Part shown: piece after piece, positions 10,343 to 64,000 of the stretch
Layout: the number at the start of each line of letters is the position of its first letter
Numbering within the stretch: the stretch's first letter is position 1
Source: Acidimicrobiia bacterium
GTDB lineage: Bacteria > Actinomycetota > Acidimicrobiia > Spongiisociales > JAHEDJ01
Direction: 5' to 3'
Length of the DNA stretch: 64,000 bases
Assembly (NCBI GenBank): GCA_029210695.1
Contig: JARGFH010000014.1
Coordinates: 1 to 64,000, forward strand
Made by a program: the position numbers and the translations under genes
Notes under the pieces: model-generated
The model's database searches: none
What the model was told of the DNA's origin: nothing
What the model saw: only the letters and a program-made list of their open reading frames with translations

Positions 10343-12265
10343 TCACCCAATGCCGATCTCGCGGACCGGGTGGCGGCATCGAGCCGACCGGGCCTGTGCG
10401 AGTGCCATTTCGATGATTGCCGGATCTCGGCCGGTGGTGCGGGCGAGGTGTTCGGTGGCTTGAGCCCGGTCGCGGGGCTCGGTGACACGTGCGATTACCG
10501 ATGATGCCTGTCGGATCGCCCGAGCGGTTGCCTCTGGCTCCTTGAGGTTGTGAGCCCCGACGATCTGTTCGATGAGGTGGTGCTCTATTGGGATGGCGCC
10601 GGCGAGGGCCTGCTGGAACGACCGCGTATTGTCGATGAGGAGGTCGGCGGGATCACGCTCCGGGGGCAGCCGGACGACCGACATGCGCAGTTGGCGGCCG
10701 GCGAGATCGAGTTCGGCCACGCGCTCCACAGCACGCAGTCCGGCGTTATCGCCGTCGAACGCAAGCGTTACCTTGCCGGCGATTTGCCCGAGCTGGTGGA
10801 GGTGCTCTGAGGTGAGGGCGGTGCCGGCTGTGGCGATGGCGTTGGTGAATCCGGCTTGATGAGCGGCGATGACATCGAGGTAGCCCTCTACCACGATGGC
10901 GTTGCCGATCTCTCGGATGGGTTCTTGGGCGAGGTGAAGGCCGTAGAGGAGCGACCGCTTCCGGTAGAGCTCGGTCTCGGGGGTGTTGAGATACTTGGGC
11001 CCTTCGCCTTCGAGGAGGCGGCCGGCGAAACCTCGAGGTCGTCCGCTGGGGTCGAAGACGGGGAAGACGACCCGGTTGCGCATCCGGTCGTAGAGGCGTC
11101 CAGTCCGAGCCCGGCCGGCGACACCAGCTTCGATGAGGATGTCCTCGCTGAACCCTTGATCGAGGAGAGCGGTGGTCAAGGCCCGCCAGGAGTCAGGAGC
11201 CCATCCCAGATGCCACACCGACGTCGCTTCCTCCCCGATGCCGCGGGAATGCAGGAACCTGAGAGCCCGCTCTCTGCTGTCGTTTTCGAGTTGGTGGCGG
11301 TAGAACGTCACCGCAGCTTCGAGGACCTCCATGAGCTCGGAACTTGGCGGTAGCTCCACGGCAGGAGAAGGCTGCGTCTGGACCAGCGACTCGTTCGATG
11401 CCGGGTCGAGCTGAAGTTCGCGGTGGTGTTCGATCTCGGTGAAAACGGTGCGGGCGCAGCCGATGACCCGATTGGCGGTAGCTGTGACCTTGGTGACGTC
11501 GCCTCCACTCCACGATGCCACGTAGGGCAGGCTGTAGCCGGCGCTGTCGATTCCGAGGGCTGCGCAGACCACATAGGCGACGGATTCCGCTTCCACTTCG
11601 ACGATGCCACGACACGCCGGCCGGTCTCCTGACTCTGGTTCGTGCAGCCGCACGTGGGCGAGTTCGTGCACCGCGGTCTTAAAACGCTGTGCGCCGGGCA
11701 GGCTGGCACGAACAACGACATCCCGATGGCGCCAATCGGTGATGCCGTTCGCTTCCCCAAGTCGTTGATCATCGGCGACCTGGAATCCGAAACCGGCCTC
11801 GGTGATCAGGTTGGTGACGTGGTTCCAGTCGGCAGGCAACTCACCATCCACCAGGGCTGCGGTGACCTCGGGGAGCGGTTCGCCGTCGGTCTGGGCGATA
11901 TCGAAGACGTGGACGACCCGGTAGCCGACCACCCGCCGTTCCTCTTCCTTCTCCTCGCCGTCTTCGGCTGCGACCTTGCGGACAACCGGAGCGAGGATCT
12001 GCAGACCCTTCTCGCCCTTACGTACCTGGCGGCCGAGCCCCTGCCAAGCCCGGTAGCCGGCCACCCGCCTGGGCGTGAAACCTCGGGCGAGTGACTGCGC
12101 CCAGATGAGCCGGGTGTTGGAGAACGAATAGTCGTGGAACCGGGCCGCCACCGCCAGGGCTCGCTGCCAGTCGTCCGAGGTGACCAGCTCGGCGAGCGAA
12201 TCCCGGAGTTGATCGTGGAGATAATCCACGACATCGCTGCGGTCGGTGGTTCGCGTGCTTTCCAC
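10343..12265 (-). CDS. ArdC-like ssDNA-binding/metallopeptidase-fold domain fused to DnaG-type TOPRIM primase core
   Basis: N-term YSFSNTRLI...GYRAWQGLGRQVRKGEKG...HELAH...EVEAES; C-term YDRMRNRVVFP...GFAGR...PKYLNTPET...VVEGYLDVI...GTALT...AFDGDNAG. Confidence 0.9.
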   Translation of the reverse strand: MESTRTTDRSDVVDYLHDQLRDSLAELVTSDDWQRALAVAARFHDYSFSNTRLIWAQSLARGFTPRRVAGYRAWQGLGRQVRKGEKGLQILAPVVRKVAAEDGEEKEEERRVVGYRVVHVFDIAQTDGEPLPEVTAALVDGELPADWNHVTNLITEAGFGFQVADDQRLGEANGITDWRHRDVVVRASLPGAQRFKTAVHELAHVRLHEPESGDRPACRGIVEVEAESVAYVVCAALGIDSAGYSLPYVASWSGGDVTKVTATANRVIGCARTVFTEIEHHRELQLDPASNESLVQTQPSPAVELPPSSELMEVLEAAVTFYRHQLENDSRERALRFLHSRGIGEEATSVWHLGWAPDSWRALTTALLDQGFSEDILIEAGVAGRARTGRLYDRMRNRVVFPVFDPSGRPRGFAGRLLEGEGPKYLNTPETELYRKRSLLYGLHLAQEPIREIGNAIVVEGYLDVIAAHQAGFTNAIATAGTALTSEHLHQLGQIAGKVTLAFDGDNAGLRAVERVAELDLAGRQLRMSVVRLPPERDPADLLIDNTRSFQQALAGAIPIEHHLIEQIVGAHNLKEPEATARAIRQASSVIARVTEPRDRAQATEHLARTTGRDPAIIEMALAQARSARCRHPVREIGIG

Positions 12266-12299
12266 CCTCGGATGATCCGATTCGACCCTGTTGTTCGAG

Positions 12300-12328
12300 T
12301 GTCAGAAACCCTGTCAGAAACCCTCCAA
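12300..12328 (-). promoter_or_regulatory. TGACAGGGT tandem box upstream of the ArdC-primase gene
   Basis: tgtcagaaaccctgtcagaaaccctccaa; 22 bp (12307-12328) identical to 43701-43722. Confidence 0.7.
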
Positions 12329-12524: not shown

Positions 12525-12544
12525 TGACCGTCGACTGACAGGGT
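12525..12544 (+). promoter_or_regulatory. TGACAGGGT box upstream of the relaxase
   Basis: tgaccgtcgactgacagggt (TGAC half-sites 11 bp apart), oriented with the relaxase. Confidence 0.55.
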
Positions 12545-12672: not shown

Positions 12673-12704
12673 CAACACCACACGCACGTGCAACAGGTTG
12701 TTGC
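12673..12704 (-). other. Putative oriT / MOBF nic site
   Basis: Minus strand TGTTGCACGTGCGTGT^GGTGTTG resembles the F-type nic (GGGGTGT^GGTG); adjacent inverted repeat gcaaca-ggt-tgttgc; about 40 bp upstream of the MOBF relaxase. Confidence 0.7.
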
Positions 12705-12737: not shown

Positions 12738-15700
12738 ATGCTGAGCATCGCCAAGGCCCACAAGGACTATTACCTCCAGAAACTGGGCGAGATCACACCC
12801 CGGGAGGACTACTACCTGCGAGGTGGAACCGCCACTGGTCGTTGGCACGGCAGCGGCGCCGTGGAGCAAGGACTGGAGGGCATCGTGTCGGCGGAGGGCC
12901 TGGTGCGGCTCTTCGACGGTCAGCACCCGGCGACGGGGGAGCAGCTCGGGCGTCAGCTTCGCAAGGACGGCGTGGCGGCCTGGGATCTGACGTTCTCGGC
13001 TGACAAGTCGGTGTCGCTGCTGTGGGCCTTCGGGGACGACCAGGTTCGACGCCACGTGGTCGAGGCGTTCGAGGAGTCCACCGCCGAGGCGCTCACCTAC
13101 TTGGAATCGGTTGCGTCGTCGACGCGGGGAGCATCGCGAACCCCGGTTCGCGACGTTGAGGGCCAGCCGATCCTCGGCGACAACGGAAGTCCTCGCTATC
13201 GGGTCGAGACATGGCCGATTCGAACCCACGGATACGTCTCGGCGTGGTTCACTGAGTTCACGAGCCGGGCGGATGATCCTCAGATGCACACCCACGTGGT
13301 TGTGGGGAACCGGGTGAAGGGTGTCGACGATACGTGGCGGGCGATTGATGGACGTCTCTTGTATCGGCACAAGCTGGCCGCTGGCTACCTCCACGAAGCC
13401 GAACTGCGCCACCGCCTCACCGAACGGCTCGGGGTCCGCTGGCAGCCGGTCCGTAGCGGTGTGGCGGACATCGAGGGCTTCACCCGGGAACAGATCATGA
13501 CCTTCTCGAAACGCCGCCAGGCAATCGAGGAGTGGCGTGACTCCCACGGCTACGCCGACACCGCAGCCGCCAACGAAATCGCCACGCTCGCGACACGAAG
13601 TCCCAAACAAGACCACCCCATCGACAGCCTGATGCCCGTGTGGCTGGAGCGGGGCGCCGAGATCGGACTCACCCCCGAGTCGGTGACAGCCGTGCTGGAG
13701 CGCAACCGGGAGGTCACGGTGCCCGACCCCGACACCATCCACGACCGGATGGCATCCGCCGACGGGCTCACCGCCCAGGCGTCGACCTTCGGACGAGGTG
13801 ACGCCATCAAAGCCGCAGCAGAAGCCCTCCCCGAAGGCGGACGACGAAGCGACGTCGAGGCCATCGCCGACTCATTCCTCCGTCGCTCGGACGTGGTCCC
13901 TATCCTCCCCATCCACCCCACTGACCCAGCGAGCGACCTGCCGATCGAGCTCGACACCGCCGAACTGGACCGGCTGCTTGAGCTGGTCAACTCGAGGAAA
14001 CCACCGACCATGCGGCGTAGCAACGGCGACATCTTCCCCGGGCTGGTCAACGAACGCCGCTACACAACCACTGAACTCCTCACCATCGAACAACGAGTCA
14101 TCGACCGCGCCCAGGAAGGTATCGCAGCCGACCGGTGGACTATCCCTGAGGCGAAGGTCGAGGCCGCCCTCGCGGCGCACACGGACCTCACCAACGGCCA
14201 ACGGGCGATGGTCCACCGGTTCACCGGGTCAGGAAACACCATCGACATCGGCGTGGGGGCAGCCGGGACCGGCAAAACGACTGTCATGGCCATCATCGGG
14301 GAACTCGCCACCGAGACCGGGACACCCGTGGTCGGAACGGCATTGGCGGCACGGGCCGCAGCCGGATTCGAAACCGCCACCGGCATCCCATCCGCCACCA
14401 TCACCCGCTTCCTGTGGGAAACCAAGGCAGCCGGTGGTCTCCCAACCCGCGCGATCGTCGTGGTCGACGAGGCAGGTATGGTCGGCAGCCGCCAGCTCGC
14501 TGCGGTCTCCGACCTGGTCGAAGCAGCCTCCGGGAAACTCATCCTGATCGGCGATCATCGCCAGCTCGCCGAGATCGACGCCGGCGGCCTGTTCGCCGCG
14601 CTGACGGCTCGCCTCCCCGCCATCGAGCTGACTGAGAACGTCCGCCAGGACCAGGAATGGGAACGCACCGCCCTGGCCGAACTCCGCCACGGCTCGATCT
14701 CGCGGGCGGTGGCCATGTATGACCGGCGCGGACTGATCAACGTCGCCGCTACCCCCGATGACACCATCGTCCAAGCCGTTGATGCCTGGTACAGCGACGT
14801 CCAAGACACCGGTGACCTTGCCCAGGTGCTGCTCATCGGACATCGCAACACCACCGTCGATCAGCTCAACCAGCGGGCTCGGGCTCTCATCGCCCAATCC
14901 GGCTTGCTCCACGGACCGGCGGTAAACGCAGGCGATCGCCTATTCCAGGCCGAAGACAGAGCTGTGTGCCTCAAGAACCGTTCGCGGCTGGGTGTGCTCA
15001 ACGGTGATCTCGCAACCGTAATGGCTGTGGACACTGAACGGCGCACGATTACGCTCAGACTCGACCGCACTAACAACACCGTCACCGTTCCCCATTGGTA
15101 CCTCGACGAAGGAAACCTCGACTGGGGCTACGCCCTCACCGGCCACAAGGCTCAAGGCGCAACCGCCCGGCGCGCGCACACGGTCGCCGGAGACGGCGTT
15201 GACCGGGAATGGCTCTACGTCACGATGAGCCGAGGCCGGGAGGCGAACACGATCTACCTCACCGATCCGGACGTCAAAGAGAGCGAATGCACGCACCTAA
15301 CCCACCAACACCCCGAACGGTTGCCTGCCCTCATTACCGCCCTTGGTCGCACCGCAGCGGAGCCGGCGGCTTCTGACTCCGGGCGAGGACCTCGCACGAT
15401 CACCGATGCACAGCTGCAGGCCCGTTTGGCGGACCTCGAGAGCCAGCTCGAATTCGGAGAGGCAAGAAGACCCGTCGACGGTCGGGACGACCTTCTTGCT
15501 GAATACATCGCCCTCCGCCAGGAGACACGCGCCCGACATCGAGACCGGCTCGACGCCATCGCATACGAGCCACCCGGATGGATAGTCGATGTCATCGGCG
15601 AGCGGCCCACCGAACCCGATCGACGAGCTGCGTGGGATCGGATCGTCGATCGAGCGGTTCACGTCCGAATCGAACTTGAAGTTCCCAACGATGCCAGCCA

Positions 15701-15836
15701 TCTTCTGGGACCCGAGCCTCCCAGTCGGGACGTCGCCCGTCGCACAACATGGATGGTCGCCCGCCGGAATATGGACGAGGATCTTCGAGCACTGAACGGT
15801 CCAAGCGATCGAAGCCTTGGTGCAGTCGCTCGCTGA
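12738..15836 (+). CDS. MOBF (TrwC/TraI-type) relaxase-helicase
   Basis: DYY...EDYY, WDLTFSADKSVS, SRADDPQMHTHVVV (HUH), FSKRR; helicase GAAGTGKT, VVDEAGMV, GDHRQL, GYALTGHKAQGAT. Confidence 0.95.
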   Translation: MLSIAKAHKDYYLQKLGEITPREDYYLRGGTATGRWHGSGAVEQGLEGIVSAEGLVRLFDGQHPATGEQLGRQLRKDGVAAWDLTFSADKSVSLLWAFGDDQVRRHVVEAFEESTAEALTYLESVASSTRGASRTPVRDVEGQPILGDNGSPRYRVETWPIRTHGYVSAWFTEFTSRADDPQMHTHVVVGNRVKGVDDTWRAIDGRLLYRHKLAAGYLHEAELRHRLTERLGVRWQPVRSGVADIEGFTREQIMTFSKRRQAIEEWRDSHGYADTAAANEIATLATRSPKQDHPIDSLMPVWLERGAEIGLTPESVTAVLERNREVTVPDPDTIHDRMASADGLTAQASTFGRGDAIKAAAEALPEGGRRSDVEAIADSFLRRSDVVPILPIHPTDPASDLPIELDTAELDRLLELVNSRKPPTMRRSNGDIFPGLVNERRYTTTELLTIEQRVIDRAQEGIAADRWTIPEAKVEAALAAHTDLTNGQRAMVHRFTGSGNTIDIGVGAAGTGKTTVMAIIGELATETGTPVVGTALAARAAAGFETATGIPSATITRFLWETKAAGGLPTRAIVVVDEAGMVGSRQLAAVSDLVEAASGKLILIGDHRQLAEIDAGGLFAALTARLPAIELTENVRQDQEWERTALAELRHGSISRAVAMYDRRGLINVAATPDDTIVQAVDAWYSDVQDTGDLAQVLLIGHRNTTVDQLNQRARALIAQSGLLHGPAVNAGDRLFQAEDRAVCLKNRSRLGVLNGDLATVMAVDTERRTITLRLDRTNNTVTVPHWYLDEGNLDWGYALTGHKAQGATARRAHTVAGDGVDREWLYVTMSRGREANTIYLTDPDVKESECTHLTHQHPERLPALITALGRTAAEPAASDSGRGPRTITDAQLQARLADLESQLEFGEARRPVDGRDDLLAEYIALRQETRARHRDRLDAIAYEPPGWIVDVIGERPTEPDRRAAWDRIVDRAVHVRIELEVPNDASHLLGPEPPSRDVARRTTWMVARRNMDEDLRALNGPSDRSLGAVAR

Positions 15837-42882: not shown

Positions 42883-43659
42883 TCACAGCGCCAGACTCAG
42901 GCTGCGGCGCACCCGACGTTCCGCCCGCAACCGTCGCTGCCGCAACGTCTGAGGATCCACATGCTCAGAAGACGCCAGCTCGTTGATCGAGAACCCAGCA
43001 GCGCGCGACATCACAACCAGACGCGCCGCGTCCTCCCGCAGATGTGCCCGCTGCTGCACCCACTCCACGAGCGTCTCGAGCCGCTGCTCGTCAGCTGATG
43101 CGTCGATGACCTCCGAGCTAGCGTCGAGGTTGCGGTAGTCCTCGACGAAGACCAACGGCTCCGAGCGCTCCCGGACAGCCGACCGCAGAACCCGGCGCCT
43201 CGTATTGCTGTAGATCCGGAAGCTCGGCTGCGTACCTGCCGGCTCAGTCGCGCACCACGAGATCACGTCCAGCGCCGTCGCCACGACCCGCGCTGAGCGC
43301 TCCTCGACATCCCATCCGCGGATCCCGACGATCAGGCTCTTCAGCCCTGGGAGGACCACCTGCAGCGCCACCCGCCTGGCGAGGCCGTCGTCAACGGCTC
43401 GCTCGAGCAGTGTGGACAGGACCTGGTCCCGCTCCGCCCAACTCGCGACATCCCGCCGCTGCGCAGCCGACACCAGCTCATCACCGTCGGTGAAGGCCAG
43501 CCGGTCGTCGCCTGTCGACCAGGCGAGGAGGCGGTCACGCAGGCACGTCGACTGGGACAAGACCCGCCACTCCGCATCAAGCCGGCGAATCAACTCACTA
43601 TCCGCCGCTTGTGACGGGCGGCCTCTCAGCCACGCGGTGCTCCTCTCGTGTGCCTTCAC
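42883..43659 (-). CDS. Sigma-70/ECF-like protein heading the transfer operon
   Basis: ARRVALQVVLPGLK (region 2-like) and AARLVVMSRAAGFSINELASSEHVDPQTLRQRRLRAERRVR (region 4-like HTH). Confidence 0.65.
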   Translation of the reverse strand: MKAHERSTAWLRGRPSQAADSELIRRLDAEWRVLSQSTCLRDRLLAWSTGDDRLAFTDGDELVSAAQRRDVASWAERDQVLSTLLERAVDDGLARRVALQVVLPGLKSLIVGIRGWDVEERSARVVATALDVISWCATEPAGTQPSFRIYSNTRRRVLRSAVRERSEPLVFVEDYRNLDASSEVIDASADEQRLETLVEWVQQRAHLREDAARLVVMSRAAGFSINELASSEHVDPQTLRQRRLRAERRVRRSLSLAL

Positions 43660-43678: not shown

Positions 43679-43722
43679 ACCCTGTCACCAGAATGTCATC
43701 AACCCTGTCAGAAACCCTCCAA
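43679..43722 (-). promoter_or_regulatory. Triple TGACA(GGGT) box upstream of the T4SS operon
   Basis: accctgtca-ccagaa-tgtca-tca-accctgtca-gaaaccctccaa; 11/12-bp period; 22 bp identical to 12307-12328. Confidence 0.7.
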
Positions 43723-48219: not shown

Positions 48220-48339
48220 CTACTTCTCCTCAACTGTCACAAGATGGCCTCCTGCCGTCTCTTCTCACAGAATACTATACCATAGGGAGAGATGGACAGC
48301 GACTATGCTCAGAGGAGAGCGTTCCTCTATGGAGGTGTC

Positions 48340-48795
48340 ATGCGGGATTCGTTGGGTTCGAGGTTGCGGGCTCGGCGCACAGAGCGGGGTCTGAAACTGA
48401 CTGATGTGGCGGACGCCACCGGGCTATCGATGCAGTACATCTCCAATCTGGAGCGCGACCGTGGGAACCCGACCCTCAAGGCGTTAGCTGCCATCGCCGG
48501 CGCGCTCGAGACGACAGTCGCGGCGCTGGTGGGGGACGACGTGGATGTCGAGGACGAAAGCGATGAGCTCGTTCTGGCCGCCCTTCCAACGTCGCTCATC
48601 ACCTTCAGCCGGACGGACCGCTTCGAGTCTGTAGTCGAGCAGCTCGGGATAGCGCAGGGCGTCAGCCGTGAGGACATGCGGCGTCGGGTTCTCGTTGGGA
48701 TGGCATCGGCGCCGCGTCGCAGTGCTGGTGAGCCAACGCGAGACGATTGGCAGCGGCTCCTCGACGCCTACCGGTTGATCCTCGACGAGGCGTGA
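48340..48795 (+). CDS. XRE-family HTH regulator (CapH-like), divergent from CBASS
   Basis: LGSRLRARRTERGLKLTDVADATGLSMQYISNLERDRGNPT; GGAGG RBS. Confidence 0.88.
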   Translation: MRDSLGSRLRARRTERGLKLTDVADATGLSMQYISNLERDRGNPTLKALAAIAGALETTVAALVGDDVDVEDESDELVLAALPTSLITFSRTDRFESVVEQLGIAQGVSREDMRRRVLVGMASAPRRSAGEPTRDDWQRLLDAYRLILDEA

Positions 48796-48796
48796 C

Positions 48797-49825
48797 ATGT
48801 CATCCCGTACGCAGATCGATGCTGCGGATGCCGTGCTGCTCGAGCTTATCGACCCTGCGATCCTGAGCGATTTGGCGAGGGATCCCCGATCTGTCATCGA
48901 GGCGCGCTTTGGGCCCATAGGCATCCAGCCGCTTCCATCGGCTTCGATGACAAATGACGAATGCTCATGCGACGGCTACTACGAGACGCTCCTCAACCCG
49001 GCGAAACCCTGGATTCTGTACGACTCTCGCGTCTCGGCCGAACGTCGCTCCTTCACTCTCCTCCACGAGTTGGGCCACCATCTCATAGCCTCGCGAGTCC
49101 CGGAACTCCTCGATGTGATCGATGAGATAGCTGGTCCCCGCGGCGATCCAGCGGCCGTTGAGGAGGTGCTGTGCCACCGACTCGCTGGCAAGCTGCTCAC
49201 GCCCGACACTCTGCTCGATGAGGTGGTTGGCAGCGACGCCCCAAGGCCAGGGCATCTACTGGAACTCAAGGAGAAGGGTCACGCCTCGTGGGAGGCCGCT
49301 GCCGTTCGACTCGCCGATCGGATCAGCGGTCCCGGTGCAGTCGTGTTGTTGCGAGAGCCCGGGCTCGTCTCATTCGCAGCTACGTCGACCGGCGCCAGGT
49401 TCGGGTGGCCGCGCAACAGCCGGCTTCGCCCCGGAGGCGCATTGAGTCGCGCATTCTCGGTCGACGCTCGGACCAAGGAAGATCGATACCGGTGGGGACT
49501 GCCTTACGAGGAGGAGCTCTTCTGCGACACGGTCAAGGTCCACGACGAACTCGTCGTTGCGGTTATGTCTCGGCATCGCAGTACGAGGGGTCTCAGCTTT
49601 CTCGAGGAGGTGGAGCCCGTTTGGAAGAGAAGGCTTGAGCTTTGTATCGCTTGCAACGGCGAGCGAATCGTCGGATGGTGCGACAAGTGCAAGGGGCGGT
49701 TCTGCCGTGATTGCGGCAGATGCGGATGCTATCGGCCAGCGGCCACGAATCGTCACTGCGAAGGGTGCGGCCTCATCAAACCCTTCCGACCCGGGTCGGG
49801 ACTTTGCCGAGACTGTGAATCGTGA
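48797..49825 (+). CDS. ImmA/IrrE-family metallopeptidase (CapP-like) with Cys-rich C-terminal extension
   Basis: RRSFTLLHELGHH...EEVLCHRLAGKLLTP...ASWEA; C-term CIAC, CDKC, CRDCGRCGC, CEGC, CRDC. Confidence 0.88.
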   Translation: MSSRTQIDAADAVLLELIDPAILSDLARDPRSVIEARFGPIGIQPLPSASMTNDECSCDGYYETLLNPAKPWILYDSRVSAERRSFTLLHELGHHLIASRVPELLDVIDEIAGPRGDPAAVEEVLCHRLAGKLLTPDTLLDEVVGSDAPRPGHLLELKEKGHASWEAAAVRLADRISGPGAVVLLREPGLVSFAATSTGARFGWPRNSRLRPGGALSRAFSVDARTKEDRYRWGLPYEEELFCDTVKVHDELVVAVMSRHRSTRGLSFLEEVEPVWKRRLELCIACNGERIVGWCDKCKGRFCRDCGRCGCYRPAATNRHCEGCGLIKPFRPGSGLCRDCES

Positions 49826-54328: not shown

Positions 54329-54733
54329 ATGGAATCATCACATACCGATCCTGATCCTGAGGTTCCGGTGCGGGCCCGGCCGCCGCGGAGCTATTCGGCG
54401 AAGTACAAGGCCCGGATCCTTGCCGAGTATGAGGACCTGTCGAAGGGTGACAAGGGGGCGTTGTTGCGACGGGAGGGCCTGTACTCGTCGCTGATTTCGG
54501 AGTGGCGGAAACAACGTGACCGGGGAGCTCTCGAGGCGTTGTCGAAGTCGTCGGGTCGCCCACCGGCTGATCCGTTGGAGCGGGAGAACGTCCGGCTGGT
54601 CCGGGAGAACCGGCGTCTCGAAACGGATTTGGATAAGGCTCGCAGGGTGATCGAGGTGCAGGGGAAACTCTCGGCGTTGTTGGAGCAGCTCGCCACCGGC
54701 AGCGCCACCGAGACGAGGGGCGAGAAGCAATGA
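54329..54733 (+). CDS. IS3-family transposase OrfA
   Basis: [12 protein letters not shown]...[18 protein letters not shown], leucine-zipper-like [13 protein letters not shown]. Confidence 0.9.
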
Positions 54734-55749
54734 TCGATGAGGCGATCGACGAGTTGGCGCCGGTGGTGGGGGTCACCGGGGCGTGTCTGGCGACGGGTCG
54801 GCCCCGTTCGACCCATTACCGCCGGCACCGGCAGAGCCCGCCACCGCCGAAACCCGAGCGGGTCCCGCAGCTCCAACCGCGGGCCCTTTCGGAGGTGGAA
54901 CGCAAAGAGATACTGCGGGTGTTGCATGAACCCGACCATGTCGATGAGGCACCCGCAACGGTGTTCGCCAAGCTGCTCGACGAAGCAACCTATCTGGCGT
55001 CGGTATCGACCATGTACCGGATTCTGCGGGCCGAAGGAGAGGTGGGTGACCGGCGCCGCCACGCCACCCACCCTGCCCACAAGAAACCTGAACTGATCGC
55101 TGTGGCACCCAACGACGTGTGGAGTTGGGATATCACCAAACTGCTCGGCCCCCACAAGTGGAGCTACTACTACCTGTATGTGATCATCGATATCTACTCG
55201 CGGTATGTGCCCGGGTGGATGCTCGCCGACAAAGAGAACGGCCGGCTGGCCGAGCAGCTACTCGCCGAGACCACCGCCAAACAACACATCGAACGTGACC
55301 GGCTCACCATCCACGCCGACCGCGGTTCACCAATGGTCGCCAAACCCGTAGCGCATCTACTCGCCGACCTCGGAGTCACCAAGAGCCATTCCCGGCCGCA
55401 TGTCAGCAACGACAACCCGTACTCGGAGAGCCAGTTCCGTACCCTCAAATATCGGCCCGAGTTCCCCGAACGCTTCGGCAGCATCCAAGACGCCCGCAGC
55501 TACTGCAACTGGTTCTTCGGCTGGTACAACAACCAGCACCGCCACTCCGGTATCGGGTTCCACACCCCCGCCGACGTCCACTACGGCCGGGCCGAAGCCA
55601 TACAGCAACAACGAGCCCAGGTCCTCAACGCCGCCTACGCCGCCCACCCCGAACGATTCGTCCGGAAACCACCCCAACCACCGGCCCTACCCACCGCGGC
55701 CTGGATCAACCCGCCACCCGACAGCGAGGACAACACAACGACACAATGA
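54730..55749 (+). CDS. IS3-family transposase OrfB (rve/DDE)
   Basis: [50 protein letters not shown]. Confidence 0.93.
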
Positions 55750-57221: not shown

Positions 57222-57326
57222 CAGAGGACCGAAAACGACCAAAGACTACGAGAGGTGACAACAGACGAAATCCCTTGCCATGTGGGGGTTTTCGCCCAAA
57301 TCGCCTGTGCTGCCAAGACCCTTGTT

Positions 57327-57374
57327 CTGCCTTCACACGGCAGAGGCCACTGGTTCGATCCCAGTAGCGCCCAC
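57327..57374 (+). other. att site: 3' half of tRNA-Val(CAC)
   Basis: ctgcc-ttCACac-ggcag anticodon arm, ctgg-ttcgatc-ccag T arm and acceptor 3' strand gcgcccac; no 5' acceptor strand or D arm upstream. Confidence 0.88.
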
Positions 57375-57377: not shown

Positions 57378-57402
57378 GAAACCGTTGCGCCGCAACGGTT
57401 TC
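57378..57402. terminator. Strong hairpin following the tRNA fragment
   Basis: gaaaccgttgcg-c-cgcaacggtttc perfect inverted repeat. Confidence 0.6.
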
Positions 57403-57567
57403 TGGCGTTTCTGAGAGCGCGAAATCCAACGGTGGCTCCGCTAGGACGCGCATGGGACGCGTTTTGTCTCGAGCTACTCCTCAACTCTGGCCGCCGCGAC
57501 CGCATCGTGACGACGTCCGGATGCGCCTCGTGGACGGCCTCTCGTGCTCCGTCACATGGACGGTGGC

Positions 57568-60500
57568 ATGATCGAGTTCTCGATACTCGGACCGCTGCTG
57601 GTACTGGCCGATTCTGTTGAGGTCTCGATTACGTCGCCACTTCAACGGGCGTTACTGGTTCGGCTGCTTCTCGAGCCGGGCAAGGTGGTATCAGTGGATC
57701 GCCTCGTTGAGGATCTCTGGGGTGACGCCCAGCCGGCCAATCCTGCAAATGCGCTGCGCTATCACGTGTGGCAGCTTCGGGACGCGCTCGAGCCCGACCG
57801 GCCGCGACGGTCCGAGGGCGGCTATGTCCGCACCAGGGCGCCGGGGTACTACCTCGATCAGGAGCAAGCATCGATTGACGCCGTCGAGTTTGAGCGACTG
57901 GCGGTTGCGGGGCGTGCGATGGTGGAGGACGAGCCTGAACGCGCTGCGGAGCTCCTCGAGGACGCACTCGGATTGTGGCGGGGGGAGGCACTCGCGGACG
58001 TTGCCGACTGCGAGTTCGCCCACGATGTGCGCCTGAGGTTGGAGGAACGCCGGTTATTGGCGGTTGAGGACCGGGTCGCTGCCAGATTGGCGTGCGGTGC
58101 TGCAACGGATCTGGTCCCGGAGTTGGAGCAGCTTGCGGGCAAGCATCCGTGGCGTGAGCGCCTTCGCGGGCAGTTGATGGTGGCGCTATATCGGTCGGGG
58201 CGTCAGGCCGATGCCCTGGCGGCGTTCCGTGACGCCCGCAGGTTGTTTGGTGAGGAGTTGGGTATCGAGCCATCTCCGGAGCTCGCGGCGATCGAGGAAC
58301 GGGTGCTCTTGCACGACACCGAGCTGGCTGCGCCACTCGGGACAGGCCGGCCGGGGTCCAACCTCCCGGAGCCGTTGACGTCGTTCATCGGACGGGACAG
58401 TGAACTCACTCAGCTTCAACGGCTGCTCGGAGAACGACGTCTCGTCACCCTGGTGGGCTCGCCGGGAGTAGGGAAGACTCGCTTGGGTATCCAAGCTGCA
58501 AGGCGCATGACGCACGGAGAACGGCATGTTGCGACGTGGATCGACCTCGTACCTATCCGCAGCAGAGATGACCTCATCCAAGCTATCGCTGACGCGCTGG
58601 AGCTCTCACGTCCGGCCGCCCAAGCAGGCGGGGATGCAACACCCATGACGGAGGTCTCGGTTCTCGAATCGCTTCGTCGGCGACCCAGACTGTTGGTCCT
58701 GGATAACTGTGAGCACGTCGTCGATCTCGTTCGCGACGTGGCTGGGGCCTTGCTGGCCGCTTCGTCCGGGACGCGGATCCTCGCCACCAGTCGTCGACCA
58801 CTTAACGAGGCGGCCGAGGTGATCTTCGAGGTAACACCCCTGCACGTGATTGATCCGGTCGACTTGGGAGACGACGGTTGGCGGCGCCTGCTGGCCACAG
58901 AGTCGGGCGCCTTGTTCATGGAACGCGCCTCGGATGCCGGCGCCCGCTTCACCAAGACGCGGGCATCGGCGGCTCAGATCGCCGAACTCTGCCAACGACT
59001 CGATGGCTTGCCTTTGGCGCTGGAGTTGGCAGCCACTCGCGCCCGGTCGATTGGTCCTGCCGATCTCCTCAGTCATCTCGGCGAACGTTTCGAGCTTCTC
59101 AACGGATCACCCGCTGATCCATCAGGCAAGGGGACGCTGTGGAGCGCCCTCGAGTGGAGTTATGACCTCCTCGAAGCCGACGAGGCGACGGCGCTCTGTT
59201 GGCTATCGGTCTTCGTTGGAGCGTTCGATCTGGAAGCAGGGACTGCGTTGATAGGTGCTGCCGGGGACACGCCGGCGTCTCGGTACAGCCTGGTCTCACA
59301 ACTGGTCGACCACTCCCTGCTGGTGGCCGAACCAGCCGAGGGTGGGAAGCGTCGCTTCCGCTTGCTCGATTCGGTCCGCGACTTCGCCCTCGAGAAAGTC
59401 AAGCAGCGCGGCGAGACATCCGCCGCAGAATCAGCACACACCAGATATGTCGCTCGTCTCGCGGAGCAAGCTTGGGGAGCTCGCGCCGATCGAGAACTTC
59501 GAGAGGAGCTCCACCAGCGGCTCGATTCGGTCAGGTTCGACGTGAGAGCCGTCATTGACCGCCTACTCGCTTCCGGAGACGCCTGCCGTGCGATCGGTGT
59601 GGCCGGGGCCCTTGGTGAGTACTGGCGCGCGAGACGTTCATACGGAGATGCGATTGCCATATGCCGCGCCATCGGCGAAGACTGCCTCGGGGGCGACGTC
59701 CGTCTCGTTGCCCGCTTCTTGAACGGATGGGCTGAAGCTGAAGCGGTGATGATGCAGCCGCAGAAAGCCCAAGACCTTTGGAGGCGGGCCTACCCCCTGG
59801 CCGAGTCGGCCGGGGAGTGGTCCCTTGCTGCCGCTGCGCTCGTCGGAACGACGATGTGGCCGGGCCTCCACAGCCCGTGGGAACCGCGATTCGATGGAGT
59901 GTGGATGCGTGCTGTGGACTGCTATCGCCGGGCTGATGACGTCCTGGGAGAGGCCCGGGCGTACAACGAACGCGGCTTCAGAGAATTGGTAGCCGGCGAC
60001 TTCGACCAAGCGTCGACCCACCTCGAGAGCGCACGTGCGCTCTTCGAGCAGGCCGAGGATGACGATGGAGTCCTAGAAGCGTTGGGGGATCTTGCGATGA
60101 CCGCTCGGAACGCTGGCGACCTCGCAACCGCGCGCGCCACCGTTGAGCGGGGATTGGCGGTCATCACTGATCGGCCGGACGACGCTCGCAGACCGCGCCT
60201 ACTCGTGGAATCAGCAGAGATCGCAATGGAAGAGGGCAAGCCCGACGCTGCCGTGAACCACTTGTTGCTGGCCCTGGCCATTGAGGACGAGTGCGCACCT
60301 GGAACGTTCTTCGCCAACACGCTTCGCTGTCTGCTGGGCTGGGCGCTGAGGGCATGCGGTCGCCACCGAGATGCGCTCGACCACATGACCTCAGCGATCC
60401 GGTTCTGCATCCGCTCGCCGTGGGCCGACCCCGACAAGTCGGGTCACGCTGCATGGCTACTCGAGTCGGTCGCCGGCCTCTGCGCCGAAGCGTTCGCCCC

Positions 60501-60732
60501 GGCCCTCGCTGCGACGCTCTTCGGTGCAGCGGAGGCTGGTCGGCGACGGGTCGGCGCACGAATGCCGGCCTGGGACCGGTCCCGGTATGACGCCGACGTT
60601 GCCCGTCTCAGGAAGCGCCTCAAACCAAACGAGCTCGAGAGCGCCTGGGAGAAGGGCGCGAGGCTGTCGGTCGAGACCGCCGCCCACCTTGCGATATCCG
60701 AACTGACCCCCTTCCTCGCCGTTTCGGGCTGA
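57568..60732 (+). CDS. AfsR/SARP-type regulator: wHTH-BTAD-NB-ARC-like NTPase-TPR
   Basis: FSILGPL, ALGLWRGEAL, HPWRERLRGQLMVALYRSGRQADAL, LGIEPSPEL, GSPGVGKTRL, LVLDNCEH, LDGLPLALELAA. Confidence 0.93.
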   Translation: MIEFSILGPLLVLADSVEVSITSPLQRALLVRLLLEPGKVVSVDRLVEDLWGDAQPANPANALRYHVWQLRDALEPDRPRRSEGGYVRTRAPGYYLDQEQASIDAVEFERLAVAGRAMVEDEPERAAELLEDALGLWRGEALADVADCEFAHDVRLRLEERRLLAVEDRVAARLACGAATDLVPELEQLAGKHPWRERLRGQLMVALYRSGRQADALAAFRDARRLFGEELGIEPSPELAAIEERVLLHDTELAAPLGTGRPGSNLPEPLTSFIGRDSELTQLQRLLGERRLVTLVGSPGVGKTRLGIQAARRMTHGERHVATWIDLVPIRSRDDLIQAIADALELSRPAAQAGGDATPMTEVSVLESLRRRPRLLVLDNCEHVVDLVRDVAGALLAASSGTRILATSRRPLNEAAEVIFEVTPLHVIDPVDLGDDGWRRLLATESGALFMERASDAGARFTKTRASAAQIAELCQRLDGLPLALELAATRARSIGPADLLSHLGERFELLNGSPADPSGKGTLWSALEWSYDLLEADEATALCWLSVFVGAFDLEAGTALIGAAGDTPASRYSLVSQLVDHSLLVAEPAEGGKRRFRLLDSVRDFALEKVKQRGETSAAESAHTRYVARLAEQAWGARADRELREELHQRLDSVRFDVRAVIDRLLASGDACRAIGVAGALGEYWRARRSYGDAIAICRAIGEDCLGGDVRLVARFLNGWAEAEAVMMQPQKAQDLWRRAYPLAESAGEWSLAAAALVGTTMWPGLHSPWEPRFDGVWMRAVDCYRRADDVLGEARAYNERGFRELVAGDFDQASTHLESARALFEQAEDDDGVLEALGDLAMTARNAGDLATARATVERGLAVITDRPDDARRPRLLVESAEIAMEEGKPDAAVNHLLLALAIEDECAPGTFFANTLRCLLGWALRACGRHRDALDHMTSAIRFCIRSPWADPDKSGHAAWLLESVAGLCAEAFAPALAATLFGAAEAGRRRVGARMPAWDRSRYDADVARLRKRLKPNELESAWEKGARLSVETAAHLAISELTPFLAVSG

Positions 60733-60758: not shown

Positions 60759-60787
60759 GCCAGATAGCCGCCAGATAGCGGCCAGAT
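60759..60787 (+). promoter_or_regulatory. Three GCCAGAT heptamers at 11-bp period; candidate SARP binding site
   Basis: gccagat at 60759, 60770 and 60781, between the SARP gene and the next gene. Confidence 0.75.
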
Positions 60788-60809
60788 GCCTCCACCGCAC
60801 GGTGGAGGC

Positions 60810-61460
60810 ATGAAGAGAATCATCGCCTTCCTCATCACAGCGGCTCTCCTCACCCCGGTTGGGGCGCAACCGGCCGCATCGAAAGTCACCGATCCAGCGC
60901 TTGCACTGACACTCACGCCATACCTGACCGAAGCTAGCCACGCATCCGCACTGGAGTTCGAGACAGTACCCAAGGAGCCGGTTCATAGCCCCGTCGACCC
61001 AGAAGCCGCTGCGCTGATGACGTGGGCGCGGACGAGATTCGAAGCCGCCGGCCTGACACTGCCCGACGTCACACTCTTCGTGCACGAGAGCCGCGACTCG
61101 TGCGACGGCAACGTCGGGCTCTTCAAAGGCTCCGACGCTGGCGGCGAGGTTCACCTCTGCACCGAAGACATGAACCTCGTCAAGCGCAGGACGCTGCTCC
61201 ATGAACTAGGCCACGCATGGACCCTGCAGCACCTCTCAGGCGAAGACATCTCGTCCTTCCTGGCGTTGCGCGGTCTCGAGCACTGGAGCGAACCCGCACC
61301 GTGGTATCACCGAGGCATTGAGCACGCCGCCGAGATCATGGCATGGGGTTTGTACGACACAGAACTTCGCGTGGTCACGATCGAGCCCAGCGACCCAGCA
61401 AGCCTGAGGATCGCTTTCCGCTTCCTGACCGGGGCTGATCCCATCTGCGGCGAGAATTGA
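60810..61460 (+). CDS. Secreted zincin-like metallopeptidase
   Basis: Signal peptide MKRIIAFLITAALLTPVGA; LLHELGHAW...IEHAAEI; GGAGG RBS. Confidence 0.8.
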   Translation: MKRIIAFLITAALLTPVGAQPAASKVTDPALALTLTPYLTEASHASALEFETVPKEPVHSPVDPEAAALMTWARTRFEAAGLTLPDVTLFVHESRDSCDGNVGLFKGSDAGGEVHLCTEDMNLVKRRTLLHELGHAWTLQHLSGEDISSFLALRGLEHWSEPAPWYHRGIEHAAEIMAWGLYDTELRVVTIEPSDPASLRIAFRFLTGADPICGEN

Positions 61461-61552
61461 CCAGGCAGAACGGCTCCCGTTCCACTCGCGGCTCTTGAGC
61501 CAGCCGCCTCCGCAACACCACCTCGGCGCAGTGGTCGCGAGGCTTGGCAGAC

Positions 61553-62683
61553 TCAGTTGCCAAGACGGAGCACGGTGCTACGTGCATCCCTGCTTAGCGT
61601 GCGTGAAGCCAGCTGGGCCTCAAGGCGCTCTGCTGCGGCCTCGTCGGCGCCTTCGTAGAGATGGCCGTACACGTCCAGAACTGTGCGTACCGAGGTGTGG
61701 CCTAGCCGGTCGGCGATCACCTTCGGGTGTTCGCCCTGGGCGATGAGGAGCGCTACCTGGGATCGGCGCAGCGTGTGAGTTCCCAGGTCCTGGTCCAGGC
61801 CGGCACCGGCGAGGGCGCGCTTCCACACACGACGCATCCACGCCGTTCTCCGGATGGGGCCACCTTCCGGTGCCGGGAATATCCAGGCTTCCGGTCCGGT
61901 CTCATCGAGCCGGGCGATGTGCTCGATGAGTTGCTCGGTTATCGACCGGGGGAGCACGACGGTTCTTATGCTCTTCGTCGTCTTGGGTGGACCGACGATC
62001 ACCTCGCCCCGCACGTCGGACGCCGTTCGGCGAACGCGGATCAGACTCCTGAGAGGATCGAAGTCGCCGAGTTGAAGACCAGCGAGCTCGCCGATCCGAA
62101 GCCCACCAAAGGCGCCGACGAGCACGAGTGCCCTATAGCGAGGGTCGATCGCATCGGCGAGACGCATCACCTCCTCGACCGTGAAGGCAACAGGTTCGCT
62201 CCGCTCGATCTTGGGGAGCCGGACATCGCGGGCGGGGGAGAGGGCGATCAATCGATCTCGCACCGCCAACCGGAACACGCCGGAGGCGATCTGCCATGCC
62301 TTCTGGACGGTGGCCGGCGCCTTGCCCTCCGCCATCAGATCGGCGACCCACGCCTCGAGATCAGACGGCTGCACGCTCCCGACCGGCTTGTCACCGAGGT
62401 GGGGGAGCACGAGCGAGTGGAGATAGGACCGATCTCGAGCTTGGGTGGACTTCCGGAGCGCCACGCGCCCCGCCAACCACCGCTCGGCGACCGACTCGAA
62501 TAGCACTCGCCCCGCCCGGGGGTCCACCCATTCCCCTCGGTCGAGCTTGACCAGTTCGTTGTTCAACCAGCGTTGGGCGTCGATCCGACGATCGAACGTC
62601 CGAGAGCGCCACCTCCGATCGGGAGCCTGATACCGCGCCCGGTACCTCCCGTTTTCGCGTCGGTCGATTGTCGTCCGGGCCAT
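61553..62683 (-). CDS. int: Tyrosine recombinase / phage-type integrase
   Basis: GRYRARY N-terminal arm-binding domain; GLRIGEL, PKT, HTLR, LGH, VYGH catalytic residues. Confidence 0.95.
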   Translation of the reverse strand: MARTTIDRRENGRYRARYQAPDRRWRSRTFDRRIDAQRWLNNELVKLDRGEWVDPRAGRVLFESVAERWLAGRVALRKSTQARDRSYLHSLVLPHLGDKPVGSVQPSDLEAWVADLMAEGKAPATVQKAWQIASGVFRLAVRDRLIALSPARDVRLPKIERSEPVAFTVEEVMRLADAIDPRYRALVLVGAFGGLRIGELAGLQLGDFDPLRSLIRVRRTASDVRGEVIVGPPKTTKSIRTVVLPRSITEQLIEHIARLDETGPEAWIFPAPEGGPIRRTAWMRRVWKRALAGAGLDQDLGTHTLRRSQVALLIAQGEHPKVIADRLGHTSVRTVLDVYGHLYEGADEAAAERLEAQLASRTLSRDARSTVLRLGN

Positions 62684-62705
62684 GACGCCCTCCCTCGTGT
62701 CTCCG

Positions 62706-62939
62706 TCATCCTCTCCCGCTGACACTACGTCGTCGGGACGACACAAACTCATGCGGTTTAGGCTCGATGCGTTCCTGGATCCACTGTTGCACGTCACGCC
62801 ACCGGTAGCGGAGGTGCCGACCCACCCGAAACGCCGGCGGTCCCTCCCTCCGGTAGCGCCAGGCATAGAGCGTCTTGACCGGCACCTCGAGGTAGGCGGC
62901 GAGCTCGCGGACGTCGACAAGGCGCTCGTCGTGTTCCAT
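62706..62939 (-). CDS. xis: Excisionase (HTH_17)
   Basis: ELAAYLEVPVKTLYAWRYRREGPPAFRVGRHLRY; directly upstream of int. Confidence 0.9.
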   Translation of the reverse strand: MEHDERLVDVRELAAYLEVPVKTLYAWRYRREGPPAFRVGRHLRYRWRDVQQWIQERIEPKPHEFVSSRRRSVSGRG

Positions 62940-62958
62940 CGCGAAATCATGCCGGGGC

Positions 62959-63258
62959 ACCCTGTCAGACGGATGTCAATTCGTTGCCATTGGAGTTGCA
63001 CATTGCAGATTCAGAGACTCGCCCCGTGGTTCGGGTGCCTCCGGTGGGAGCCTCGATAGAGCCAATGATTCCGGGCGTTGACAGGGTCCCTGACAGGGTT
63101 GCGGACATTCTGCGGAAAGGGTGGTCGACGGCTCCGAGTGTGATCTCGACATGGCCGGGCTGCCGATCCGCCGCTCGAAGTGGCCTCGTGCCTACAACGA
63201 GAACAACACAGGGGTAGAAAGGTCCCCGGCTTGCCGTATGACAGCCCGGTGACAGGGT
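62959..63258. promoter_or_regulatory. Divergent cluster of TGACAGGGT boxes
   Basis: Minus-strand copy 62959-62967 facing xis; plus-strand copies 63079-63087, 63091-63099 and 63250-63258 facing the oriT copy. Confidence 0.65.
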
Positions 63259-63534
63259 CGTCGGGTTGGATGCCGCTCATGAGACGACCAGAACCGACCA
63301 TGCCGACACTGAATCCGATGGAGTGGCGCCGTGGAGGTGGCCATCCCACACGTCGGCTGGAGCGTGACCGCCACTGCAACGCAACACAAACGATGACGAC
63401 AGCAGCGGAATCCGAATGCTTGCAGTCCCCAGGCACTGAACCGCCCCCACGCTCCGGAGAGCAATCGCCTCCAGCACTACGAACGTCGACGAAAGCGCAC
63501 CGCACCCAGATCGCGATTCGCGCTCACCACCCTC

Positions 63535-63557
63535 CAACACCACACGCACGTGCAACA
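63535..63557 (-). other. Second copy of the putative nic/oriT core
   Basis: caacaccacacgcacgtgcaaca identical to 12673-12695. Confidence 0.75.
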
Positions 63558-64000
63558 CTTCCTGTGTCAAGCCCTGGGTGGTTTGGTTGGTGTTGTCAGG
63601 GCGCGTGGGAGTGGGGCCGCGGCGCGGCCCGTCAGCGGGTGGGTTGTTGGTTCTAGCCGGTTAGGGATTGGAGGTTGCCGTGCCGGTCGGGGTTGTAGGG
63701 GGTGTGGTCGGTCCAGCATCTCCAGATGACCCGGATCCAGGCTCGGGCCAGGACGCGGATGGCGTGGGGGTGGTCACAGCCTCTTGCTCGTGCCTGCCGG
63801 TAGACGTCGTTGGCCCATTGGTTGCCGTGGCGGCTGTTGTTGGCGTAGGTGGTGATGGCCTGTCGGAACCATTTGTTGCACGCCCGTCGGAACAGCACGT
63901 TTCTGTATTTGCCGGATTGTCGGGTGATGGGAGACACGCCTGCTTGTGCGGCGACCGATTCTGCGTCTGGGTAGGCTTGGCGGACGTCGCCCCATTCGGC
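63558..64000 (-). mobile_element. IS110-family element (3' part only)
   Basis: Transposase C-terminus followed by about 95 bp of non-coding DNA ending ...cttgacacaggaag; boundary approximate. Confidence 0.75.
63653..64000 (-). CDS. IS110-family transposase, C-terminal part (runs off the window)
   Basis: AQAGVSPITRQSGK...RRACNKWFRQA...YRQARARGCDHPHAIRVLARAWIRVIWRCW. Confidence 0.9.
   Translation of the reverse strand, partial: AEWGDVRQAYPDAESVAAQAGVSPITRQSGKYRNVLFRRACNKWFRQAITTYANNSRHGNQWANDVYRQARARGCDHPHAIRVLARAWIRVIWRCWTDHTPYNPDRHGNLQSLTG

Follow-up and report, generated by a model that had tools for sequence, protein, structure and literature searches.

Why should the same 23 nucleotides lie both in front of the relaxase gene of an integrative conjugative element (ICE) and, 51 kb away, beside the integrase and excisionase genes of what seems to be a separate element? 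The question is raised by the first 64,000 nucleotides of contig JARGFH010000014.1 from an Acidimicrobiia bacterium (assembly GCA_029210695.1), a stretch that we call the window and whose positions are given on the forward (+) strand. The original prediction, made from the letters of the window, was that the right-hand element is a satellite of the ICE, sharing its nick site and its regulatory boxes. We assign a probability of roughly 55% to this explanation as a whole, i.e., that the second element is a relaxase-less integrative element that would be mobilised in trans by the co-resident MOBF ICE, and comparison with related sequences largely bears the prediction out. Nicking, the strand nicked, mobilisation in trans and co-regulation are steps that we infer from that comparison.

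The exact 23-mer, CAACACCACACGCACGTGCAACA, is found at 12673-12695 (copy 1) and at 63535-63557 (copy 2), both times on the + strand, where 0 occurrences are expected by chance. The window contains no third copy even when up to 3 mismatches are allowed, and 0 of 100 shuffled sequences gave any match, so that the pair is real. Copy 1 is followed, after 42 nt, by the ATG of a gene for a MobF/TrwC relaxase-helicase of 1032 aa (12738..15836, +), which is recognised by Pfam TrwC (1.5e-71) and AAA_30, by the NCBIfam MobF model NF041492 (211 bits against a cut-off of 100) and by a structure match to TrwC (1omh, E 2.6e-23), with TraI structures also matched. Copy 2 lies 443 bp before the end of the window, upstream of an excisionase-type HTH_17 protein of 78 aa (xis, 62706..62942, -; Pfam HTH_17 8.5e-12, and 23.5 bits for TIGR01764 excise, below its cut-off of 28.8) and a full-length tyrosine integrase of 376 aa (int, 61553..62683, -; Pfam Phage_integrase).

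A scan for the exact 23-mer in 185,579 species genomes, a collection from which the window's own genome is absent, returned 18 loci, all in metagenome-assembled genomes of Acidimicrobiia or other Actinomycetota, and 17 of them distinct (L001 and so on below). The 23-mer is not a dispersed chromosomal repeat but is confined to the control regions of mobile elements. The relatives also explain the flanks of the two window copies, which had been described as otherwise dissimilar. This is true between the two copies, but each of them matches a different flank of the module found in the relatives: copy 1 has the core and the right flank in common with it (12669-12724, approximately 80-82% to L003 and L017) and not the left flank, while copy 2 has the core and the left flank, from about position 63500 (84.7% to L012 over 63500-63557 and 91.3% to L017 over 63512-63557). 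Because one copy keeps the right and the other the left family flank, the two overlap in the 23-mer alone.

Read on the minus strand, the 23-mer (TGTTGCACGTGCGTGTGGTGTTG) looks like a MOBF nick region, with a predicted nick at TGTTGCACGTGCGTGTGGTGT/TG. The 13 bases before this position, GTGCGTGTGGTGT, match F at 11 of 13 positions and R388 (positions 13-25) at 10 of 13, the substrates compared being GCGCACCGAAAGGTGCGTATTGTCT/ATAG for R388 (PMC4176350) and the hairpin GCAAAAACTTGTTTTTGCGTGGGGTGT/GGT for F (PMC3074121). In the part of the R388 study drawn on here, G17, T18 and T23 of MOBF nick regions are conserved in most plasmids or correspond to the F/pKM101 state, GTGT occupies positions 22-25 in most MOBF plasmids, G21 is found in F and pKM101, and position 26 is generally a purine (PMC4176350). 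The 23-mer carries G17, T18, G21 and T23, and GTGT at 22-25. The predicted nick would fall between + coordinates 12675 and 12674 in the core of copy 1 (12673..12695, -) and between 63537 and 63536 in that of copy 2 (63535..63557, -). Next to the core of copy 1 is a hairpin, GCAACA-GGT-TGTTGC (12690..12704, -), whose proximal arm lies within the 23-mer; on the minus strand it precedes the core as GCAACA-ACC-TGTTGC, and it appears in both the minimum free energy and the centroid folds of single-stranded DNA. The hairpin of the relatives, GCAAC-TT-GTTGC, resembles that of F, GCAAAAAC-TT-GTTTTTGC, and its helix is 88% paired over 17 sequences. On the 3' side of the predicted nick the relatives have a GCGCG..CGCGC helix (93% paired over 17 sequences), the counterpart of which at copy 2 is the inverted repeat CGCG-ATT-CGCG (63512..63522).

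The second feature common to both elements is a short box, TGACAGGGT, which occurs 8 times in its exact form in the window against 0.55 expected, a number that 0 of 100 shuffles reach. Boxes with one mismatch are not enriched (13 against 14.2 expected), and the enrichment is thus limited to the exact form. The boxes, at 12308-, 12536+, 43679-, 43702-, 62959-, 63079+, 63091+ and 63250+ (the sign giving the strand), fall into three intergenic regions, of which one separates the ArdC-primase gene of the ICE from its relaxase gene, one precedes its transfer operon and one lies between xis and copy 2. The last region has four of them, one (62959-) facing xis, just as the original prediction claimed. 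The sharing of boxes between the ICE and the second element is likewise non-random, but they are not isolated sites: they are units of arrays with a 12-nt period and the pattern TTGGAGGGT, TGACAGGGT, TGACAyTC, TGACAGGGT. Specifically, a four-unit array with 12-bp phasing, TTGGAGGGT/TGACAGGGT/TGACACTC/aACAGGGT (12285..12328, -), precedes the primase start by about 20 nt, and another of four units (43679..43722, -) stands at the head of the transfer operon, 20 nt upstream of its first gene; the two arrays make up a direct-repeat family (D8) with 82% identity over 44 nt. A single box (12536..12544, +) is upstream of the relaxase gene. In the second element one array (62959-62979, -) faces xis, its box being 16 nt upstream of the xis ATG, and two others follow, with four units at 63079-63126 (+) and two at 63235-63258 (+). 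The relatives have 31 exact boxes across 14 of the 17 loci, all starting between -725 and -7 of the 23-mer; up to 20 kb per locus contained no others. In 8 of the 17 loci a minus-strand box overlaps the first two bases of the 23-mer, directly after the predicted nick, a place that the variant unit TTGGAGGGT takes in copy 2, L010, L013 and L017.

The organization of the relatives is that of small integrative elements. In 10 of the 17 loci the integrase gene directly adjoins a full tRNA gene (Val, Pro, Glu, Leu or Arg), and the integrase, on the opposite strand to the 23-mer module, is of the tyrosine type in 9 loci and in 1 more where it is in pieces, a large serine recombinase in 3, and beyond the contig end in 4. 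After the integrase comes a gap of 450-900 bp, followed by the GCGCG..CGCGC repeat, the 23-mer, the hairpin, a palindrome of 16-18 bp, a Shine-Dalgarno sequence and, usually, a gene for a protein with a SEC-C motif. The orientation of the 23-mer relative to int is the same in copy 2 and in all 17 loci. The elements that could be delimited span 4-9 kb; direct repeats of 43-46 nt from the tRNA gene bound those of L007 (about 5.0 kb), L008 (about 4.1 kb) and L015 (about 8.6 kb), and in L012 a tRNA-Val fragment lies 3.1 kb to the right of the 23-mer. Second, partial tRNA repeats are seen to the right of two of the delimited elements, at +8540 in L007 and +4938 in L008, which suggests arrays of more than one island at one tRNA gene. 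L014 and L018 have 20,023 nt identical at an offset of 22,436 bp in one contig of 60.6 kb, which points to a tandem repeat or to repeated assembly of a circular molecule; the unit contains a serine recombinase, the 23-mer module, RHS-repeat proteins and an extracytoplasmic function (ECF) sigma factor, and is without transfer genes.

The original prediction called for a search of related genomes for the 23-mer next to int-xis without a relaxase, and the outcome is in its favour: the 17 loci have integrases, with no relaxase, coupling-protein or VirB4 homologue. Specifically, there was no Pfam match to TrwC, T4SS-DNA_transf, AAA_10 or FtsK-type families among 101+15+15 proteins of the loci, these being open reading frames (ORFs) picked by length and third-position GC content (GC3) from within up to 10 kb rather than all ORFs, and tblastn with the window's relaxase, coupling protein, VirB4, TcpC, primase, VirB6-like, sigma-like and HTH_3 proteins returned nothing in the 17 loci. 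Copy 2 is thus part of a widespread family of integrative elements without a relaxase, and its element would most likely be mobilised in trans, like the mobilisable genomic islands (MGIs) of SXT-type ICEs.

The gene behind the module gives a further handle on the family. The SEC-C protein has 148-189 aa, starts with MxLDRGxLAKIDR and ends with the SEC-C zinc motif. Its gene is intact in 11 loci according to the alignment, with a PF02810 match in 9 of the 9 proteins scanned; it is truncated or frameshifted in L001, L004 and L015 and cut by the contig end in L017, and in its place L010 has an HNH nuclease gene and L013 a 93-bp segment. In L010 (10074-10945) the 23-mer and palindrome are followed by the HNH endonuclease gene and a DUF4265 gene, so that the gene behind the module is exchangeable. 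Among 52 leftward small ORFs scanned between int and the 23-mer of the other loci, the single HTH_17 protein is that of L013, and xis and the SEC-C protein therefore replace each other. The boxes accompany three clades of SEC-C proteins and are also present where there is no SEC-C protein (the ICE, copy 2 and L013); hence the small elements do not themselves encode the factor that recognises the boxes. The protein family is large, with at least 583 clusters at 90% identity, none of them functionally named, and the window has no homologue (tblastn, best E 0.009).

The palindrome before this gene is 86% paired over 17 aligned sequences, with compensatory changes in 4 of its 8 pairs, and its covariation score is reached by 0 of 500 shuffles and is much lower for slid controls. 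Its classes (GGTTAAC.., GGTATAC.. and GTCTAC..) follow the three SEC-C clades, which differ before the first long helix of the protein. This match would be in keeping with a dimeric DNA-binding protein whose target is its own leader or the origin, but the link is not independent evidence, because site and gene are adjacent and are inherited together. In the AlphaFold model of the SEC-C protein (mean predicted local distance difference test score, pLDDT, 70.9), helices at 34-46 and 51-66 come after a conserved VKVP stretch. We read this as a ribbon-helix-helix (RHH) fold, a reading that the fold search does not confirm: Foldseek against PDB gave 0 matches at an E of at most 0.001, RHH proteins (MatP, ParG, Rv0298 and MazE-mt10) are among the weak rows (E 1.7-9.7), and a profile search of PDB sequences returned the SEC-C knuckle alone.

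The mechanism suggested by these features is simple. The 23-mer would be the core of a MOBF origin of transfer (oriT), nicked after GGTGT, with the small hairpin on its 5' side and a box unit and the GC-rich hairpin on its 3' side. With this polarity the ICE would bring its ArdC-primase gene into the recipient first and its relaxase gene last, placing the primase gene in the predicted leading region, and the second element would bring in xis-int first. The small elements would use the relaxase and the mating channel of a co-resident MOBF ICE. Boxes precede the primase gene, the relaxase gene and the transfer operon of the ICE as well as int or xis of the small elements; one factor would therefore activate both together. 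This factor, not supplied by the small elements, is presumably encoded by the ICE and would couple int/xis expression to ICE induction. A candidate for such a box-dependent regulator, and for the shared switch, is a divergent sigma-70-like protein of 258 aa encoded by the first gene after the box array of the transfer operon, which it heads (42883..43659, -). Its Pfam match to Sigma70_r4_2 is weak (0.0025), but its language-model feature score against sigma-70-family clusters is 0.98, and the predicted structures give template-modelling (TM) scores of 0.57-0.59.

Several observations count against this explanation. The base at position 26, after the predicted nick, is T, where most MOBF plasmids have a purine. 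The folding energies of the regions as single-stranded DNA are no better than those of shuffles (z -0.45 to -1.6), and no similar motif is seen upstream of the relaxases of three Corynebacterium MobF plasmids, which at about 35% identity are the nearest plasmid relaxases (3 records examined among at least 5000 matches). In both the ICE and the relatives the 23-mer precedes a start codon by about 40 nt, a spacing that a promoter or operator could equally explain. At copy 2 the family module is cut short: with neither the distal hairpin arm nor the palindrome nor the SEC-C gene, it may be a weak or dead origin. The right part of its element lies beyond the window, and the identity of the two copies, which are 51 kb apart, could have been kept by gene conversion. 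The exact 23-mer is beside a relaxase gene in 0 of the 17 other loci, though relatives of the relaxase are abundant: Acidimicrobiia have 795 proteins at an E of at most 1e-20, the best 120 of which are at least 70% identical over the relaxase domain, several being named MobF family relaxase. The link between relaxase and core therefore depends on this single window, and either the cores of ICEs usually differ by at least one base or the ICE of the window is unusual. The abundance of close relaxase relatives in the same class, on the other hand, speaks for mobilisation in trans, as does the constant orientation of the core relative to int. The helper-satellite reading is thus supported in part: the sites are non-random, MOBF-like and found in 17 relaxase-less loci, but among the sequences compared the exact core accompanies a relaxase in the window alone.

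What could the shared sequences be if they were not an origin? The rival that survives best, though we think it improbable, is that 23-mer and boxes form a promoter or operator cassette for the gene to their right, with no role in transfer, one dedicated factor driving the relaxase gene in the ICE and the SEC-C gene in small elements that would be plain non-conjugative islands. The 23-mer does lie 37-42 nt before a start codon with a Shine-Dalgarno sequence in the ICE and in the family, the box unit abuts it or, as in the 8 of 17 loci noted above, overlaps its first two bases, the covarying palindrome tracks the SEC-C clades much as an autoregulatory operator would, and the sigma-like protein of the ICE is itself encoded behind a box array. 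However, copy 2 and L013 retain the core with no gene behind it, and the bases shared with F (11/13) and R388 (10/13) are in the very stretch that the relaxases of those plasmids read. Moreover, the ICE has one core, at the relaxase gene, while its two other promoter regions are served by boxes alone, and a sigma-70-type -35/-10 pair is not evident by eye in the 23-mer.

A second rival, which we would place lower still among the improbable ones, concerns the right-hand unit only: it could be a decayed relic rather than a working satellite, derived from a sister ICE or from a family member whose right half has been lost, with the core kept identical to that of the ICE by gene conversion. The parts missing from copy 2 would fit, as would the IS110-family gene 95 bp away, and so would the lack of a tRNA gene or a significant direct repeat flanking int. 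Decay is also common in the family, affecting the SEC-C gene in L001, L004 and L015 and the integrase in L001 and L004 (L001 has its integrase in three pieces, that of L004 shows a gap of about 45 aa, and that of L015 is split in two ORFs). Yet int, with its 376 aa aligned over the full length, and xis are intact, four exact boxes are retained, and none of the relatives has a relaxase. A further counterpoint is L013, from another genome, which has int, an HTH_17 xis, boxes and the same block (63509-63650, 86.7% over 143 nt), including the 93-bp segment that takes the place of the hairpin arm, palindrome and SEC-C gene (63558..63650) and that is common to copy 2 and L013 alone. Because L013 shares the truncated block, the form is inherited and conserved rather than the result of a local accident.

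That the similarity ends at the 23-mer through an insertion of an IS110-family element cutting a second oriT-relaxase unit is very unlikely: the IS110-family transposase gene of the window does end at 63653, and such elements insert at specific sequences, but L013 has the same 93 bp followed by an ABC-transporter permease gene and no transposase, and the homology stops at 63650. An insertion exactly at the end of the 23-mer is thereby contradicted; the IS110 gene begins near 63651 and has left the predicted origin uncut. The transposase gene (3' end at 63653..64000, -; Pfam Transposase_20, NCBIfam transpos_IS110) runs off the window and, about 95 bp past copy 2, lies outside the module of the element.

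The mobilisable-element reading can also be extended into a bolder proposal, which we offer as tentative: a very large, undescribed family of minimal relaxase-less elements in Acidimicrobiia, each with an integrase, an oriT module of about 110 bp and a few cargo genes, would parasitise MOBF ICEs, be wired into ICE control through the boxes, and carry the SEC-C protein as a new kind of relaxosome or specificity factor; the window would then have helper and hitcher next to each other at one tRNA gene. In this proposal the nick core is an invariant 23 nt and the TGACAGGGT arrays are phased at 12 bp, and the RHH-like, coiled-coil protein with its SEC-C knuckle would co-vary with the palindrome.

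The candidate helper is a MOBF ICE with a type IV secretion system (T4SS), at least 57 kb long, that starts beyond the left edge of the window. Its relaxase, coupling protein and VirB4/TcpF-like genes and the attachment (att) fragment of its right end are in the window, and its integrase, its left end and the full tRNA gene lie beyond it. The primase gene (10343..12265, -) combines an ArdC-N domain with a DnaG-type primase (Pfam ArdcN, DNAG_N and Toprim; NCBIfam dnaG). The transfer-gene block as a whole runs from 33205 to 42471 on the minus strand and encodes, by Pfam and NCBIfam, the coupling protein (33205-34896, -), a VirB6/TrbL-like protein with an M23 hydrolase (35657-38535, -), a VirB4/TcpF-like ATPase (38352-40871, -) and a TcpC-like protein (41545-42471, -). 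An alternative class, the actinomycete integrative and conjugative elements (AICEs) that transfer double-stranded DNA by FtsK/TraB, does not describe it, as no FtsK-type or Rep Pfam match was found among the scanned proteins of the window or of the loci.

The right end of the ICE is marked by a tRNA-Val(cac) 3' fragment that begins in the anticodon loop and extends to the acceptor end (57326-57373, +); it is the right att repeat. The fragment named in the original prediction is real: over 48 nt (57327-57374) its identity to the 3' part of the tRNA-Val(cac) gene of L004 is 97.9%, although its Rfam tRNA score of 25.7 bits is below the threshold of 29. No Rfam family reached its gathering threshold anywhere in the window, and ARAGORN found no complete tRNA gene in it. 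A tRNA 3' fragment that stands alone on the + strand is the right boundary of whatever element lies to its left, so the ICE extends to 57373. Right after the fragment comes a perfect inverted repeat, GAAACCGTTGCG..CGCAACGGTTTC (57378-57402), followed by a T-rich run; it is terminator-like and could be the native flank of the tRNA gene or an element end.

To the right of the fragment the picture of a second element is kept in part, since it has its own int-xis and the shared sites, but copy 2 is truncated and an IS110-family gene begins about 95 bp after it. Relaxase, coupling-protein and T4SS genes are absent between 57374 and 64000, where the element runs off the window, and blastn of 61400-64000 for plasmid relatives gave IS110 genes alone. 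Its left limit may be the tRNA-Val fragment, in tandem with the ICE, or may lie just left of int; int is 4.2 kb from the fragment, and integration in tandem at tRNA-Val would be a possible arrangement. The interval contains a SARP/BTAD-NB-ARC-TPR regulator (57544-60732, +; Pfam, and AfsR-like in NCBIfam) and a 224-aa HExxH protein (60786-61460, +; Pfam), neither with a PADLOC match, which are either cargo of the second element or chromosomal. The identities of the integrase, 45% to L006/L007 (tRNA-Pro), 43% to L004 (tRNA-Val) and 30% to L013, do not settle its att site. Even within tRNA-Arg contexts the integrases of L013 and L017 are 29% identical. We also considered a 2.1-kb unit of int, xis and core bounded by short direct repeats, which is not supported, the repeats being no better than those of shuffles (a 14-nt imperfect repeat in the window is matched by 277 of 300 shuffles, and GAGCGGGTGG of L013 by 60 of 300). 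A parallel to a left limit at the tRNA fragment is offered by L013, which has a full tRNA-Arg gene at 5.5 kb to the left of int and, 4.4 kb to the right of the 23-mer, a tRNA-Arg fragment; paralogous sets of ABC-transporter and peptidoglycan-binding genes (2711-6843 and 9386-12173) flank its int-xis-23-mer block.

The ICE carries further genes outside the transfer functions. A Hma-type defence system occupies 20832-30384 (PADLOC: HmaC 977 bits, HmaB methylase 1051, HmaA helicase 1471) beside a GmrSD-N protein (19043-20773), and a Type II cyclic-oligonucleotide-based antiphage signalling system (CBASS) operon (43915-47981), with an E1-E2 fusion, an oligonucleotide cyclase and a SAVED-endonuclease effector, lies directly behind the box array of the transfer operon. 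A Hypoth_Ymh / PD-Lambda-3_B-like protein is encoded at 3190-4026 (PADLOC 239.5 bits). An HTH_3 repressor-like gene followed by a gene for an M78 (ImmA/IrrE-like) peptidase (48292-49825) is a possible induction switch of the ICE. The window has four transposase genes (15957-17342, 30666-32465, 54730-55749 and 63653-64000; two DDE_Tnp_1, one rve and one IS110), the first of which is directly 3' of the relaxase gene. Finally, repeats spaced by 252 bp (185-633, families D1 and D6) lie within a gene for a 933-aa LysM protein.

How do these elements compare with known ones? The MGIs mobilised by SXT/R391 have their own int and recombination directionality factor (RDF), no conjugation genes and an oriT of the helper type, and their int, RDF and excision are driven by SetCD of the helper, according to the part of a 2017 review that treats them (PMC5704250). 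The likeness to MGIs of the MGIVflInd1 type lies in the tyrosine integrase of their own, the RDF or xis, the lack of conjugation genes in the relatives and a predicted oriT related to that of the helper. The differences are in the helper, which is MOBH for the MGIs and here would be a MOBF ICE with a T4SS of the Gram-positive type in Acidimicrobiia; in the shared sequence, about 63% identity over 282 bp for the MGIs against an exact 23-nt core with phased boxes here; in size, 18-33 kb against about 4-9 kb for the relatives, which are in tRNA genes; and in the host phylum and the SEC-C protein. In SGI1 and MGIVchHai6, mobilised by IncA/C plasmids, the same part of the review describes excision under the master regulator of the helper and, for some, a relaxosome accessory factor (PMC5704250). 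By analogy with SGI1-type islands the SEC-C protein could fill such an accessory role, but there the relaxase family and the hosts are others, and no genes for remodelling of the T4SS are seen here. The review also mentions integrative and mobilisable elements (IMEs) integrated in tandem with ICEs (PMC5704250); the tRNA fragment between the two elements of the window is similar to such arrays, whereas here int is 4.2 kb off and the far end lies beyond the window.

At the level of the origin, the likeness to F and R388 consists of a hairpin 5' of the nick, GTGT before it, and a relaxase gene placed for last transfer. Having the relaxase gene transferred last is the usual layout of MOBF plasmids. 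Compared with F, six extra bases (ACGTGC) separate hairpin and core; other differences are the T that follows the predicted nick in place of a purine, the box arrays on the flanks and the chromosomal location of the element. The arrays have a parallel in StbA of R388, for which short direct repeats, phased at about one turn, lie by oriT and before the operon. The likeness is in phased repeats beside an oriT and before an operon, and a homologue of StbA was not identified here. In R388 the stb operon is next to oriT (PMC3098194).

Searches of the literature on IMEs, oriT and relaxases of Actinobacteria and on ICEs of Acidimicrobiia returned, among the matches listed and by their titles or the start of their abstracts (supplements being outside this scope), no description of such elements. 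Helper-dependent elements are thought to make up a large and poorly charted share of genomic islands, and relaxase-less mobilisable elements are documented in Proteobacteria and Firmicutes. In its actinobacterial part, the 2017 review has a single IME, whose relaxase is a MobV, and no IME with a link to MobF (PMC5704250). The second element probably follows a hitch-hiking lifestyle that is known in other bacteria and undescribed in Acidimicrobiia, a class in which conjugation has hardly been studied. The 23-nt core together with the box motif provides a simple sequence signature for such elements in uncultured Acidimicrobiia, and because the signature pairs the small elements with a candidate helper, it makes the relations between helpers and hitchers, and their regulatory coupling, testable.

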